Shown piece by piece: positions 219 through 35,812 of a stretch of 64,000 nucleotides of DNA. The notes beneath the pieces were generated by a model. The model saw nothing but the letters and a program-made list of their open reading frames with translations, was not told where the DNA came from and searched no databases. The position numbers and the translations under genes are program-made. This stretch comes from Escherichia phage DK-13: the sequence record MT611523.1; one strand, 5' to 3'. Each line of letters starts with the position of its first letter. Within the stretch, counting starts at the first letter, position 1.

Positions 219-252
219 ATAAAAAGGCCCCAACCAAAAGGAAGGGGCAAAA
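218..252 (-). terminator. rho-independent terminator for leftward transcripts
   Basis: On - strand: hairpin GCCCC-(12 nt loop)-GGGGC followed by CTTTTTATTT; lies just downstream of the 276..443 ORF. Confidence 0.6.
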
Positions 253-275
253 CCAAAAATGGTTAACAACACTAG

Positions 276-443
276 CTAAATTAAAAGTTGGGTCTCGTTC
301 AGTTGCTCTTCTGTATTTTCCGTAACTGGCAAACTCTGAACATAATTATAACAGGCGCCCGGATGCACCGGACCTTGGTCTGTATCCACAACCAATGCAG
401 AATCGATTGGAGTTTTACAGACAACACAAATCTTATCTGACAT
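276..443 (-). CDS. 55-aa CxxC...C zinc-ribbon-like protein (uvsY.-2 position); not in ORF track (<60 aa)
   Basis: ATG preceded by GAGGAGACAATC; translation MSDKICVVCKTPIDSALVVDTDQGPVHPGACYNYVQ...; stop TAG then terminator. Confidence 0.45.
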   Translation of the reverse strand: MSDKICVVCKTPIDSALVVDTDQGPVHPGACYNYVQSLPVTENTEEQLNETQLLI

Positions 444-582
444 GATTGTCTCCTCAGTTAAACTTACATATCTATTTAGTGCTCTTCATAATAGCAGCAC
501 GAGCTTTCATCTCATTAACAATTTCGGTTATTCGGTTTGCAGAGATAACCATCTCGTCGAGAATCTTACTAATATTTTTCAT

Positions 583-816
583 TTAATTTTCCTTAAAGTA
601 TCTCATACCAGTATCTATTCCCATATTGTGAGAATAGAACGCATCATCGATGTATCCTGCAAATTTACCTTTAACATAGATAACATCTTCACCACAAGGG
701 TGGTCAGCGCAGATACGAATATCTGCACGATTCAATTTCCATTCCTTCATCATATACTTAATTTCTTCTTCGAACTCTTCGTCTTGGTTAAACGCATCGT
801 CGATAGAATATCGCAT
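583..816 (-). CDS. hypothetical protein (uvsY.-1 position)
   Basis: 77-aa ORF; ATG overlaps uvsY stop (TAATG); GAGG 12 nt upstream. Confidence 0.55.
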   Translation of the reverse strand: MRYSIDDAFNQDEEFEEEIKYMMKEWKLNRADIRICADHPCGEDVIYVKGKFAGYIDDAFYSHNMGIDTGMRYFKEN

Positions 817-1250
817 TACTTGCCCGCCTCAAATTGTCTTATTTCTAACATATGTTTAAGTGCGAAACTTCGTGACTTAACACCATCTAATGCAGCGCTA
901 CAGAAGTCCTGGAGCAGTGTCCAATACTGAATTGACGTATCAATCTTCAGTACGCTTGAATCTGCGGCCATGACTGTTTTCAATTCTGACTTCTCGTACA
1001 CATCCATGCATACTTCTTCCCCTGGGTCACCCCTTCCTGTATAATGGTCTAGTCGTTTTTTCAGTGCAGTTTTCTTCTGAATCTCAAGACGCATTATTTC
1101 TTTCTTGCAGTTGGTATACAATCTCAACCATTTGCTATGCAACAAAACGTTGTTTTGTGTTTCATATTGAAGTTGTGTACCATCAATTTTTAAATCTGCA
1201 TCTAACTCATCCTGAAAGACTTCTAACTTATATTCAATCTCTGTTTTCAT
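816..1250 (-). CDS. uvsY: UvsY recombination mediator
   Basis: Matches remembered T4 UvsY (…KLQYE..NNV.L.SKWL…, …SLQYW..L.DFCS.ALD..KSR.FA.KH….FEAGK); start moved to internal ATG at 1250 because the tracker ATG (1280) overlaps the promoter -10. Confidence 0.85.
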   Translation of the reverse strand: MKTEIEYKLEVFQDELDADLKIDGTQLQYETQNNVLLHSKWLRLYTNCKKEIMRLEIQKKTALKKRLDHYTGRGDPGEEVCMDVYEKSELKTVMAADSSVLKIDTSIQYWTLLQDFCSAALDGVKSRSFALKHMLEIRQFEAGK

Positions 1251-1278
1251 AATGTATCCAATGTAAGGGTCTAGAACC

Positions 1279-1305
1279 ATTATACAGCCATAAAATTAAA
1301 GCATT
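1279..1305 (-). promoter_or_regulatory. MotA-dependent middle promoter upstream of uvsY
   Basis: On - strand: TTAATGCTTTA (MotA-box-like TGCTTTA), 12-nt spacer, TATAAT; overlaps gene 25 3' end. Confidence 0.5.
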
Positions 1306-1693
1306 AACCGTTTTGACTTAGCTGAATCCTGATTTGTTCGAGGGTATCAGGGTCATCAACAATGCTGAACTGAACTGTTACGATAATGGAGTTATCATCA
1401 TACATAGGGACAACTGCCACCTGTAGATTGCTTATCCTTGGTTCGAAGTTCCGCACCGCGGAGACGATGTTGCGTTTAATGGTATCTGTGATTAATGGAG
1501 TGATATTCTCGAAAAGCTGATTACTTATATCACATCCAAATTCAGGCATAAAAGGCCTTGACCCTTTTCTTGTGGTGATTATTCCCAAAAGACTGTTCTT
1601 AACAGACCTTGCACCAGTTACTTTAGCAACGTCTTTATCCCAACTTGTAGATAAGTCGGGAGACACATCGCTATACATTTTGTTTATATTCAT
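1304..1693 (-). CDS. 25: baseplate wedge protein gp25 (GPW/gp25 lysozyme-like family)
   Basis: 129 aa; MNINKMYSD... and ...GIITTRKGSRPF.PEFGCD... match remembered T4 gp25; synteny. Confidence 0.9.
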   Translation of the reverse strand: MNINKMYSDVSPDLSTSWDKDVAKVTGARSVKNSLLGIITTRKGSRPFMPEFGCDISNQLFENITPLITDTIKRNIVSAVRNFEPRISNLQVAVVPMYDDNSIIVTVQFSIVDDPDTLEQIRIQLSQNG

Positions 1694-2317
1694 TTACATA
1701 AACTTAAAGAATTCTTTAAGCCCCTTAATTACATGGACAGAATGTGCTCCGCACTCGCAAGAGATAGGAATAGCCATTTGGACCTGTGGCTTGAGAAGTT
1801 CTTCTGTTAGTGCATTTATATCATCGAGGGTAATTGCATTGTACAGGTCCTCGATTTCAGCTTCATTTAAGTCATCAACAACGATGCGCTCACCGCCTTC
1901 CGTGATAATATATTCGATACAACAAGCAATCATTTTTCCTTTATCACCATCTTCAAACAGTCCAGGATAACGGAATTTAATTTTAAACGCCCCGAAATCA
2001 CGAATAACTTCAGACTCATCCACGATGCTTGCGCGACTTATAGTCACAGGAATATCTTGTTCCTTTCCGCACTCACATACCCATGTATGCTCGACGTTAA
2101 CAGCTCCGAGACTATTTGCCCAGAGATTAATAAGAAGCAGCTCGGCTTCCTGTTTGTTTAACCCTTTAGCATCAGTGCATTTATTAAGCAGTTCAATTAT
2201 TGCAGGTTCCATACGCTTTTCTAATTTTGCCTGAAGCAAATCTTTGTATTCGCGCAAGGTAAAAGCCCTACAATTTATAGTTTTATTTTTAATTTGGACA
2301 ATAAATTCATAAGTCAT
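1694..2317 (-). CDS. 26: baseplate hub protein gp26
   Basis: Synteny (between 25 and divergent 51), size 207 aa from ATG with AAGGAG SD; tracker start at 2350 is TTG. Confidence 0.7.
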   Translation of the reverse strand: MTYEFIVQIKNKTINCRAFTLREYKDLLQAKLEKRMEPAIIELLNKCTDAKGLNKQEAELLLINLWANSLGAVNVEHTWVCECGKEQDIPVTISRASIVDESEVIRDFGAFKIKFRYPGLFEDGDKGKMIACCIEYIITEGGERIVVDDLNEAEIEDLYNAITLDDINALTEELLKPQVQMAIPISCECGAHSVHVIKGLKEFFKFM

Positions 2318-20752: not shown

Positions 20753-21231
20753 ACACCAAGCTCCTTATAAAGTTCTTCGCGACAAGTTTTAAGGATTTTA
20801 CCAGTTTCATAAGCTGCGCTTTCAGAAACATCACCAAGTGTGGCGGCAGCTTGCATTTGACCATGGCGTTTAGCCGCATATTCAAAACTTTTTACCAGTT
20901 CACGAATACGTTCTTTTTCATTGTATTCTTCAATAAATTCTGGGTATTCCCAAACAGGTCGCATCATACGATACCAATGCTGAATAGTAATATAATTACT
21001 TCCATCCAGATTAATAATTTGCGAAGGCTTAATAGCGCCCGGGGCATAAAAAGTTACCTGTCTCACTACATCAATACCGTCCACAATAGCCCAAGCAAAA
21101 TTGAAAGTGGCCTTCTTTTCAATTGGTGTGCTTGCACAGGACCCTAATTTTAAGAGCTTTTGTAATACAGGAGATTTAACACCTGAAATGTATTCAGGCT
21201 TAGCCACAAAACTGTTATCACGTAATGTCAT
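20749..21231 (-). CDS. hypothetical protein with its own promoter cassette
   Basis: Start moved to ATG after GAGGAAATGATT (tracker start lies inside the promoter); about 160 aa. Confidence 0.5.
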
Positions 21232-21258
21232 AATCATTTCCTCAAATTTTATTATCCG

Positions 21259-21294
21259 TGGGAGCATTATACTCTGCTCCCATGAGTTTGTACA
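21259..21294 (-). promoter_or_regulatory. early promoter with inverted repeat spanning -10
   Basis: - strand TGTACA-aactcatGGGAGCAgag-TATAAT-gCTCCC; arms GGGAGCA/TGCTCCC. Confidence 0.5.
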
Positions 21295-21398
21295 CTATTT
21301 TCCAAAAAGACCTTGAATATGCAAAGTGGTCGCAATTCCAAAACAAAAACAGAATGCACCAAATCTAACAATATCCCAACCAAGGCTACAGGTCTCTA

Positions 21399-21689
21399 TC
21401 ATTTGCAACGTTCCTCTTTTAGTTCAGAACGATAATAACATAACATACCTTTTTGGTCATGTACATATCTTTTTACATCATTCATCCAAATCCTGAATTC
21501 TTGCGATGCCTCAAAAGGCATACCAACCCACGGCTGACCTTCAATTACCTTCACTTCCCATTGCTGCTTATAATCAGCCAATGCAGCAGGCCAATTAGGA
21601 TGAACTTGGATTGTGGGCTCCACAACGGGCTTCTGGGCGCACGAAACGAGCCCAATAGCCAAACATACTGCCATGATAGATTTCATCAT
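21399..21689 (-). CDS. o-spanin (outer-membrane lipoprotein spanin subunit)
   Basis: 96 aa, signal peptide with lipobox LVSC; ATGA overlap with upstream i-spanin. Confidence 0.65.
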   Translation of the reverse strand: MMKSIMAVCLAIGLVSCAQKPVVEPTIQVHPNWPAALADYKQQWEVKVIEGQPWVGMPFEASQEFRIWMNDVKRYVHDQKGMLCYYRSELKEERCK

Positions 21690-33022: not shown

Positions 33023-33934
33023 TTAAAGGCCAGCCAGAAGGTCGTCAAGACCATCATCAGAAGGCTCTGGAGTGCTTGGAGCAGTCGCAGTGCGTTCAGA
33101 CTTAGCAGGTTTGCTGGAAGTGAAGTCTTCCATATCTTTATCAAAATCGTCCAGGTCAGCACCCAGTTTATCGGCTTGTGCAGCGGCTTTAGAAGCAGCA
33201 CCACCGAGAGCAGCCGTACCCATTACTTTAGAGAATTTCTTCTGATTCTCTTCAAGGGATTTAAACACCAGCAATTCATTCAGGTCAGACATTTCGTCCC
33301 AAAGTTTTTTCTGGAATGCTTCATCATTGATACCAGCGATTTCAGACTGGTTCATGAATTTGGAATCATCGTAGTTTTTATAACCGGAAACCATTTTAGA
33401 TTTCAGTACGAAGTTCGCACCTTCAAACGGACAAGTTACATCGATAGCAGTTTCACCCATGTCAACATCGACTTCAACCATCTGGTTGATTTTGTCCATG
33501 ATTTTCTTACCAAAGCGATATTTGAATACTTGGCCTTCGTTAGACGGAACTGCAGGGTCTTTAATGACCAGGATGTTAGCCCAGTAAGAAGTATTACGCT
33601 TCAGTTTACGATATTCGGATTCGTTTGTATTGTACAGGTCATTCTTATTCATGTACGCACACACAGGGCAGTTTTCATAATCGCCGTGAGTAGAAGTACA
33701 GTTTTCAATATACCATTGACCAGCATTTTTAAAGCCGTGGTTAACGAGCTTGATGAATGGAGATGGATTTTCTTCATTCTTAGAAGGCAGGAAACGAATA
33801 ACCGCAGAGCCGACACCATCAGTATCTTTCAGTTTCCATTCTTTTTTATCGTCAGAAGAGAAACCAGCACCACCTTTCAGTGCATTAAGGGAAGCAGCCA
33901 GGTCAGCAGGGTTTTTACGTTTAAACATAGACAT
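33023..33934 (-). CDS. 32: single-stranded DNA-binding protein gp32
   Basis: 303 aa; [58 protein letters not shown], acidic C-terminal tail ending DDLDDLL. Confidence 0.95.
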
Positions 33935-33983: not shown

Positions 33984-34622
33984 TTAATTATACTTCAAAG
34001 TGATTGAAGCGATAAACTTTTGAAATTCAGAATCAAGATGGGGATTCCATCCTAATTTGAATTTATTTATAATGGAAATACCGGTCGTGTGTGTACACGG
34101 TAAACCAGTTTCTCTTGCCATAATAACTGGACCAAGTCTGGAAGTTCTATGCGGTCCTATATACCAGTCATAATATATTCCAGCATTTAACCAAACTAAA
34201 TGAGCACCTTTAGCTATTGTATTAGGATGTTCCCAAGGCAATAAACCTTTAAGGTGAGAATTTAATTTCATATTTATTTTATGTGATTCTGATTTTGGTT
34301 TACCTTTTAATGAAGACTTAAAGGTTCCACGAGCACTCGCCTTATTGAAAAACAATGGCGATTTAACCACATTATAGTGTTGATGGTAAAACTCTTCTTC
34401 TGACAACACATCGTCACACACATGCAGAATTTTAACGGTTGGTTTTTCAGACAATGCCTCAATAAAACGAGATTGTTTGCATGAAGACCAGTATTCTTTA
34501 TTATGTGAATCAATTATAACACCATTTTCAAAAGCACAATTATGCTTTGACCCAATGTAAAAATAAGGAGGCGTTTTATTTTTCAGACGAGTTTCAAATG
34601 TAAACCAATATACAACATTCAA
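33984..34622 (-). CDS. homing-endonuclease-like ORF (GIY-YIG/NUMOD-like, SegG position between 32 and 59); no ATG start, possibly degenerate
   Basis: Tracker start codon is TTG; first in-frame ATG only at codon about 118; N-terminus VVYW...YFYIGSK resembles a GIY..YIG motif pair; GKPKSESHKINMKLNSHLKG resembles NUMOD3. Confidence 0.4.
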   Translation of the reverse strand: MNVVYWFTFETRLKNKTPPYFYIGSKHNCAFENGVIIDSHNKEYWSSCKQSRFIEALSEKPTVKILHVCDDVLSEEEFYHQHYNVVKSPLFFNKASARGTFKSSLKGKPKSESHKINMKLNSHLKGLLPWEHPNTIAKGAHLVWLNAGIYYDWYIGPHRTSRLGPVIMARETGLPCTHTTGISIINKFKLGWNPHLDSEFQKFIASITLKYN

Positions 34623-35272
34623 AACTTACACCCTTTAACAGTCTCGATGAACAATTTACGGGCTTCAAGAGAATCGATATTTAAGATTTTCTTATAAGCA
34701 TTTAGTTTAGTTGAATACTTTTCCCAAACCAAGTCGTTAGTCTGTTCATCATGTTGGTCTATTATACCTAAAAATGAATCAAGCAAACAAAACGTTTCAA
34801 ATGAAATAACATTCGATTGGAGAAGTTTGAAAATATAACTTGTATTCACTTTAGTATTATACTCGAAAATCTCTTGGAGCGATTTGACTTCGACTTTCTT
34901 ACTGAAGTAATAGATGTTCTTTATATCATCTTCGTATACTTGTCTAATTCTTTTAAGTCGGCCAATGTATTCTCTATAAAATATCAGAGCATCGGCATCA
35001 CTTATATCGCCTATCCATGCATCCTGGTTCGCAACCAGGTTTGACATGAATATTAACGTTAATTCTTTAAGAGTGTACTTATCGCTAAGCTTTTCGAAAA
35101 AATACTTATCGCGACGTTTTTGATAAGCACTATCGGAGATTCGCATGGTCCAGTTATATTTGATAATATCATAACGACCCGAAAAATGCTGTTTGATGGA
35201 TAAGTACAGTTGGTATACTGATTTACCATTTATATATCGGTTGTTATTTGGAGGCATGCGAATCGTAATCAT
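34619..35272 (-). CDS. 59: helicase loader gp59
   Basis: 217 aa (same as T4 gp59), position between 33 and 32; ATGA overlap with gene 33. Confidence 0.8.
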   Translation of the reverse strand: MITIRMPPNNNRYINGKSVYQLYLSIKQHFSGRYDIIKYNWTMRISDSAYQKRRDKYFFEKLSDKYTLKELTLIFMSNLVANQDAWIGDISDADALIFYREYIGRLKRIRQVYEDDIKNIYYFSKKVEVKSLQEIFEYNTKVNTSYIFKLLQSNVISFETFCLLDSFLGIIDQHDEQTNDLVWEKYSTKLNAYKKILNIDSLEARKLFIETVKGCKF

Positions 35273-35562
35273 AACAAAAAGTCCAGCGTATTAGTTTTCT
35301 GTGTACGAGACATACTTGGGCGAAGCAGGTTATCATCATATGCTTCATTCATAATCTTATCAATGATTCCCGCAGGAATGTATCGTGCAAAATTACCTTC
35401 AGGAATTCCACGTTCTTCCAACCAGGCGGTCGCAGCTTCCAGATAAGACATTTCAGTTGACTCAACCATGGCTTCAATATCAAGCCCATTTTGCTGCTTA
35501 CTAATCGCCCCGGAAGGCGATTCAGTTTTCTGTGTATCGAAATTAACTAAAGAGGACATCAT
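35269..35562 (-). CDS. 33: late transcription co-activator gp33
   Basis: Start moved to ATGATG after GTGGAG SD, overlapping dsbA 3' end; C-terminal ...LLRPS...KTNTLDFLL resembles T4 gp33. Confidence 0.7.
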   Translation of the reverse strand: MMSSLVNFDTQKTESPSGAISKQQNGLDIEAMVESTEMSYLEAATAWLEERGIPEGNFARYIPAGIIDKIMNEAYDDNLLRPSMSRTQKTNTLDFLL

Positions 35563-35812
35563 AGAGCTCCACAGCTTCGGTTTTTTCATCTTCAAAACGT
35601 TCACGAGTGCCTTTATGATACAGGCCGAGCTGTGTATTGAACATCTTACCGTCAACGCCTAATTCAGTTTTTGCCTTATCTTTAAGGTCTTTAATTTCGT
35701 CTGCATATGCTTCCATTTTTAATTTGGTATCGGAAGCAGCTTTAATCAGCTTGGCTAGTTCAGCACCATGAGTATCAGGACAAAATTCAACTTTCACTTT
35801 TTTCTCTTTCAT
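35543..35812 (-). CDS. dsbA: double-stranded DNA-binding protein DsbA
   Basis: 89 aa (same as T4 DsbA), position between rnh and 33. Confidence 0.75.
   Translation of the reverse strand: MKEKKVKVEFCPDTHGAELAKLIKAASDTKLKMEAYADEIKDLKDKAKTELGVDGKMFNTQLGLYHKGTRERFEDEKTEAVELYDVLFS

Follow-up and report, generated by a model that had tools for sequence, protein, structure and literature searches.

The window, the whole stretch of 64,000 nucleotides of Escherichia phage DK-13 (MT611523.1) analysed here, carries a minus-strand reading frame of 212 codons followed by TAA, with gene 59 and gene 32 on either side (Table 1). The initial annotation had placed a homing-endonuclease-like ORF at the position occupied by segG in phage T4, and this was confirmed both by a PHROG match and by comparison of the loci. 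It had further described the frame as devoid of an ATG start, and the sequence reads so: codon 1 is TTG, which overlaps the gene 59 stop in the arrangement TTGA, and the first and second in-frame ATGs are codons 118 and 168. An in-frame TAA is situated 6 nt upstream of the TTG, therefore no earlier start is possible for segG.

Table 1. Features of the gene 59/segG/gene 32 region, in window positions
Feature	Position	Strand	Basis or remark
segG-like ORF, TTG start	33984..34622	-	Coordinates and start equal to SP18_gp255 / YP_003934878 (segG) and to the RZ CDS
Gene 59 (helicase loader), upstream cistron, stop overlapping the segG start	34619..35272	-	
Putative TTG initiation codon, homologous to the T4 segG ATG	34620..34622	-	Gene 59 TGA at 34619..34621; alignment
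Gene 32	33023..33934	-	
Mobile cassette, including the last four gene 59 codons	34012..34632	-	13 nt (AACTGTCAAATAA) in VR20 and MN01
Last 8 segG codons (ASITLKYN)	33987..34011	-	Sequence common to seg-less VR20 and MN01
T4 late-promoter consensus TATAAATA inside segG, 137 nt before the gene 32 ATG	34064..34071	-	
N-terminal GIY-YIG-like catalytic domain, codons 1-94	34341..34622	-	Family invariants; pLDDT about 90
Linker, codons 95-127; NUMOD3-like GKPKSESHKINMKLNSHLKG after disordered 95-107	34242..34340	-	Below Pfam threshold
Shine-Dalgarno-like AAGGGTG in gene 59 codons Lys-Gly-Cys, 5-7 nt before the TTG	34629..34635	-	Duplex energy
Out-of-frame ATG abutting the gene 59 stop (TGAATG), 11-codon ORF MLYIGLHLKLV*	34583..34618	-	Sequence
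Predicted hairpin pairing the SD-like element and the TTG	34585..34633	-	-9.2 kcal/mol

The segG cassette and its surroundings

Shigella phage SP18 and E. coli phage vB_EcoM_RZ, two members of Gaprivervirus, match the window across this region at 100% identity. The records of SP18, RZ and UPEC07 annotate the identical ORF, with the identical TTG start, as a homing endonuclease, which is named segG in SP18. As a publicly annotated gene from a family that has been characterised, it does not amount to a novel type of system.

The start-codon calls around the gene 59 cluster disagree between these three records. The dsbA and gene 33 starts (window 35269-35655, minus strand) are annotated differently in SP18, RZ and UPEC07, with dsbA given as 255 or 270 nt and with a GTG start in SP18, and gp33 as 294 or 291 nt. 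Gene 32 (minus strand, 33023-33934) opens with two in-frame ATGs (ATG TCT ATG TTT, MSMF), of which the second is used in the SP18 and VR7 records (906 nt) and the first in those of RZ, UPEC07, VR20 and MN01 (912 nt); a Shine-Dalgarno (SD) sequence, AAGGA, precedes the first ATG by 8 nt. It should be added that the window contains a second annotated homing endonuclease gene, SP18_gp235 (about 20876-21601, plus strand), which is encoded on the strand opposite to its neighbours and overlaps the 3' end of pseT with its own 3' end by about 87 nt.

The cassette was present in SP18, RZ, UPEC07, TH22, TH55, VR7 and TH15 and absent from VR20, VR25, VR26, MN01 and further close relatives whose flanks are nearly identical. 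A presence/absence polymorphism is thereby evident, SP18 having 621 nt where VR20 and MN01 have 13 nt and the flanks being 98-100% identical. The C-terminus of the gene 59 product differs correspondingly, ending in ...NCQITLQSL* in VR20 and MN01 and in ...GCKF* in SP18. Homology between the seg-less genomes and SP18 picks up again at CGCTTCAATCACTTTGAAGTATAAT, hence the last eight SegG codons represent flank sequence.

Just upstream of gene 32 a MotA-box-like element, GCTTCA-N12-TATAAT (33987-34010, minus strand), abuts the segG stop and also occurs in VR20; it is a candidate middle-promoter motif for gene 32. The late-promoter motif TATAAATA, embedded in the 3' part of segG in the window and in T4 alike, recurs between -137 and -167 in 8 of 12 type-A copies, that of T4 included. 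Published analyses describe T4 segG as a cassette without a dedicated upstream region and with a chimeric 3' end reading into the gene 32 control sequence (PMC2988022, PMC535899), and gene 32 promoters are embedded in it (PMC2988022). The flank-derived 3' end of the window gene, which likewise reads into gene 32 control sequence, and its embedded late-promoter motif agree with this description. Differences in gene 32 between SP18 and seg-less VR20 and MN01, inspected for a hint at target or immunity, did not track seg status. On the metagenomic contig carrying relative P0004, an extra 204-aa ORF (245-859, plus strand) with a Pfam I-TevI_DNA-bd match is located between genes 33 and 59, and gene 59 is flanked there by two endonuclease-like genes.

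Protein family and predicted domain architecture

The window protein matched PHROG 7504 'homing endonuclease', the T4 SegG family, with an E-value of 2.9e-91 over residues 1-205 of 212 (T4 SegG itself, 1.3e-133), and was 40% identical to T4 SegG over residues 1-200 (tblastn). These matches place the ORF far beyond chance. A further match, to PHROG 314 (E 6.3e-10, residues 13-152), is the one through which the profiles link this protein to the GIY-YIG superfamily, PHROG 314 being the best match of I-TevI (5.9e-51). Searches of Pfam and NCBIfam with the window protein gave no match, and Pfam GIY-YIG (PF01541 / PF19835) was absent both from it and from all 29 close family members; among the 58 wider relatives, five showed weak matches to SegE_GIY-YIG (best E 3e-4).

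Profile search of 1.84 billion representatives retrieved 451 relatives at E <= 1e-3. In nearly all of the best 150 of these 451, the N-domain starts at residue 1-3, which fits the TTG start and not one further downstream. Scanning of IMG/VR with a protein pattern found no relatives, and with a degenerate DNA pattern for the N-terminus it returned only two T4-type copies and ten chance matches. Neither hmmsearch of PDB sequences with the family profile nor Foldseek against PDB produced a significant match, and hhalign of the family to I-TevI did not align the catalytic domains.

An AlphaFold2 model built from 25 sequences had a mean pLDDT of 83.6, and of about 90 in the N-domain. The predicted topology of this domain is strand-strand-helix-strand-helix, and we count a match to the GIY-YIG fold among the results; residues 95-107 are modelled as a disordered linker, after which a helical C-domain follows. 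The three strings that had been picked out initially were all found in the translation: VVYW at residues 3-6, YFYIGSK at 20-26 and GKPKSESHKINMKLNSHLKG at 106-125. The first two contain the GIY-type (V3-V4-Y5) and YIG-type (Y22-I23-G24) motifs.

Alignment with the SegG family, which had been proposed as a way to score the catalytic residues, found all 17 invariants of the 29-sequence alignment kept in the window protein (Y5, R12, P19, Y22, I23, G24, S25, K26, Y44, W45, S46, S47, P61, E76, N93, A97 and G99). In the wider set of 58 sequences Y22, G24, Y44, S47, E76 and N93 were still invariant, and Y5 was conserved in at least 90%. E76 resides in the helix after the third strand, with N93 following, and both are invariant in the 29 and in the 58 sequences; judged by their position in the predicted secondary structure, we infer that they are equivalent to E75 and N90 of I-TevI. 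The canonical Arg was not placed. The family has no invariant Arg after YIG as a counterpart of I-TevI R27, R52 of the first helix is variable, and R12 and K26 are conserved, their active-site placement requiring model coordinates.

The suggestion of a NUMOD3-like segment held in one respect and failed in another. It fits the architecture of the family, 38 of the 58 relatives having Pfam NUMOD3; however, PF07460 (NUMOD3) did not match the window protein even at E up to 10, and hhalign to the NUMOD3 region of I-TevI was weak (E 0.008, probability 5%).

Among the characterised enzymes, the closest in arrangement is free-standing T4 SegG (gp32.1; NP_049855), which shares the locus and orientation of the window copy, has 210 versus 212 aa and aligns with it from codon 1, whereas residues 70-92 and the C-terminal domain have strongly diverged. 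In relation to I-TevI, the T4 td intron endonuclease and GIY-YIG reference, no significant direct match of the catalytic domain was obtained; the motif tyrosines are 17 residues apart in the window protein versus 11 in I-TevI, and the zinc finger of I-TevI is missing.

The 32.1 proteins of VR7, TH15 and Boboto, encoded at the same locus as in SP18, are 57-73% identical to the SP18 N-domain over the first ~100 residues, but their C-terminal half has NUMOD3-type repeats and a CxxC...H..C zinc finger instead. Two unrelated C-terminal halves, those of SP18/T4 (...GWNP...) and of VR7/TH15/Boboto (NUMOD3-like repeats and zinc finger), are thus joined to one conserved N-terminal nuclease domain at the 59/32 locus, with a module exchange at about residue 100 in the alignment (window 33984-34340 versus relatives). 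The VR7 gene (1500-2265, minus strand) is frameshifted: it has one extra G after ...DSAK in comparison with the intact 223-aa copies of TH15 and P0012, which shortens the protein to 182 aa, the zinc-finger tail still being legible in a different frame; either the copy is decaying or its sequence contains an error. On one IMG/VR contig (627-820, plus strand) a T4-type segG is identical to T4 for 53 residues, then out of frame, and ends after 64 codons.

The gene 59/segG junction in relatives

In T4, the junction reads TGA-T-ATG AAT ATA GTA TAT TGG (MNIVYW), and in the window TTG AAT GTT GTA TAT TGG ((M)NVVYW); by this alignment, the TTG of the window is the codon homologous to the T4 segG ATG. 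Phage genomes and metagenomic contigs yielded 18 copies of the gene at the 59/32 locus. Of these, nine open with a TTG that overlaps the gp59 TGA, namely those of SP18, VR7 and TH15 (Gaprivervirus), ZX14 (Kanagawavirus), MX01 (Dhakavirus) and the contigs with P0002, P0003, P0010 and P0014, i.e. from three genera and from metagenomes; the other nine have ATG (T4, a51, Boboto, MHG19 and the contigs with P0004, P0006, P0008, P0009 and P0023). The junction is identical in SP18, RZ, UPEC07, VR7 and TH15, and TH22 and TH55 are 99.5% identical to the window across the whole 801-nt stretch compared.

The SegG proteins with TTG starts are only 36-70% identical, with as little as 36% identity to SP18, and represent both types of C-terminal module. 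In a neighbour-joining tree of the N-domain, calculated without bootstrap and with recombination possible, the TTG and ATG states were interleaved. TTG is a weak and rare start, the sole one of its kind among the 76 annotated CDS in 50 kb of SP18. Its recurrence in distant relatives argues for a conserved mode of starting translation and gives no sign of decay: a weak start codon that lasts over such divergence is, on this comparison, not a fresh lesion. For ORF236 of MX01 (801-1436, plus strand), the annotation begins only with the ATG at codon 7 and so drops the conserved IVY motif; this start is probably mis-annotated, since the family homology begins at the TTG overlapping the gp59 TGA.

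Pairing with the 3' end of 16S rRNA was computed for the 19 nt upstream of each start. The SD-like element of SP18 gave -6.4 kcal/mol, and gene 32 in the window -6.0. At all nine TTG junctions, an SD-like AAGG is contained in the final codons of gene 59 (-5.0 to -6.4 kcal/mol), whereas the nine ATG junctions ranged from +1.4 to -4.1 kcal/mol and were mostly about 0. In gp59, these codons specify Lys-Gly (AAAGGG, AAAGGT or AAGGGT) and, in P0010, Lys-Asp (AAGGAT), therefore the SD is kept where the gp59 residue differs. The association of SD and TTG across junctions is suggestive and, given possible common ancestry, is not a statistical test.

The UUGA overlap of stop and start with the upstream cistron has the structure required for translational coupling, and no terminator-like site was found between gene 59 and segG. 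Reinitiating ribosomes could be diverted from the TTG to the out-of-frame ATG (34618..34616) that abuts the gene 59 stop; the TGAATG is restricted to the SP18/VR7/TH15 lineage. A hairpin that would hide both the SD and the TTG was considered and rejected, with a z-score of -1.6, 15 of 200 shuffled sequences folding equally well and the structure being absent at other TTG-type loci.

Comparison of codons 2-100 between SP18 and its TTG-start relatives gave pN 0.13-0.19, pS 0.56-0.66 and dN/dS 0.13-0.19, which indicates purifying selection on the stretch of segG that precedes the first ATG. Copies within the SP18 clade are nearly identical (UPEC07), so that very recent selection is beyond measurement.

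How segG may be translated, and what this means

Taken together, we favour, at a probability of roughly three in four, an intact free-standing SegG-type nuclease cassette, from which the whole protein is made starting at a UUG that overlaps the gene 59 stop. Initiation from a non-ATG codon or by coupling had been one of the alternatives offered at the outset, and it fits the homology of the TTG, the nine TTGA loci, the SD-like element and the constraint before the first ATG. The other was a decaying remnant, in which the ATG has been lost, the nuclease half stays untranslated and the ORF persists as recent or as a carrier of gene 32 promoters. Such an origin would account for the lack of an ATG before codon 118 and for a start codon that is rare in the SP18 genome; decayed relatives do exist (the frameshifted VR7 gene and the IMG/VR T4-type copy broken after 64 codons), and gene 32 promoter-like motifs do lie within the ORF (see also PMC2988022). 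Against this, the ORF is uninterrupted and of full length compared with T4 SegG, every family-invariant residue is retained, the TTG is common to nine loci despite the divergence of their proteins, the SD-like element is maintained ahead of it, and the low dN/dS applies to precisely the part that would be untranslated. We therefore regard decay as improbable.

For such a remnant it had been suggested that the DNA-binding half may still be made, and synthesis from the ATG at codon 118 of a DNA-binding protein alone, without nuclease activity, has some precedent, as I-TevI is known to moonlight as a repressor via its DNA-binding domain (PMC2988022); no ATG of the frame comes earlier than this codon, and type-A relatives often carry Met at the corresponding column. 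This is nevertheless very unlikely, for the 20 nt upstream (CAGAATCACATAAAATAAAT) have no SD-like sequence, the strong constraint on codons 2-100 would be left unexplained, and the type-A relative P0007 has Leu at the same column. A base error masking a normal ATG has nothing but the odd start codon in its favour and is already refuted by independent sequences: the junction is identical in genomes sequenced independently in several countries (SP18, RZ, UPEC07, VR7 and TH15), and the TTG form recurs in other genera and in metagenomic contigs. Scarcely any weight can be given to a scheme in which ribosomes start at the ATG behind the gp59 stop and then shift into the segG frame. In its favour, TGAATG is a good context for reinitiation and the frame opened by this ATG ends 11 codons on; against it, a slippery site is not apparent, the ATG is missing from the other six TTG-type junctions and homology to T4 SegG begins at the TTG codon itself. 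As the true start, this out-of-frame ATG was rejected, being lineage-specific while homology extends from the TTG.

With the whole protein initiated at the UUG, segG would be read from the gene 59 message, and the product would consist of an N-terminal GIY-YIG-type nuclease, a flexible linker and a helical DNA-binding domain. Ribosomes could reach the UUG by pairing with the SD-like AAGGGUG among the terminal codons of gene 59 or by starting anew once gp59 synthesis has terminated; low-level UUG initiation by one or both of these routes is most likely, and the weak start codon combined with either would keep the nuclease level low. By analogy with T4 SegG, the enzyme would cut the DNA of co-infecting relatives lacking the cassette in or near gene 32, and repair from the SP18 copy would then spread the cassette together with flanking markers. 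UUG initiation, translational coupling, low expression, nuclease activity and the target of the window SegG are what we infer from sequence comparison and from the T4 precedent.

[quoted passage not shown] Several T4 homing endonuclease genes overlap the upstream gene (PMC2988022, PMC2330249); the nrdA/mobE overlap UAAUGA suggests translational coupling that limits nuclease synthesis (PMC2988022), and mobA, with GUG, is one case of a non-AUG start (PMC2988022, PMC2330249). The window segG resembles mobE and mobA in having an overlapping stop/start or a non-AUG start, features that have been discussed as keeping levels low (PMC2988022); it combines UUG, overlap and an SD-like element, while MobE and MobA are HNH enzymes and not GIY-YIG. 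T4 segG itself has its ATG one nucleotide after the gp59 stop and no SD-like element, in contrast to the overlapping TTG with AAGGGTG in SP18.

The significance of the locus is modest, as segG is annotated in SP18 and RZ and the T4 member has been characterised experimentally. The conserved TTG start of segG is nonetheless one that annotators should trust, with MX01 as a counterexample in which the first catalytic motif is lost, and the 59/32 locus is a place where DNA-binding modules are exchanged on a constant nuclease domain. More tentatively, the gene 59/segG junction may have switched repeatedly between two weak designs, a UUG overlap with a gp59-encoded SD and an AUG without an SD, which we consider possible but doubtful. 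If it did, nuclease output would be held by selection within a narrow low window, and the cassette would shape the C-terminal codons of an essential host gene, gene 59. The pairing of TTG with an SD and of ATG with none offers a small natural case of how toxic selfish nucleases may stay low.
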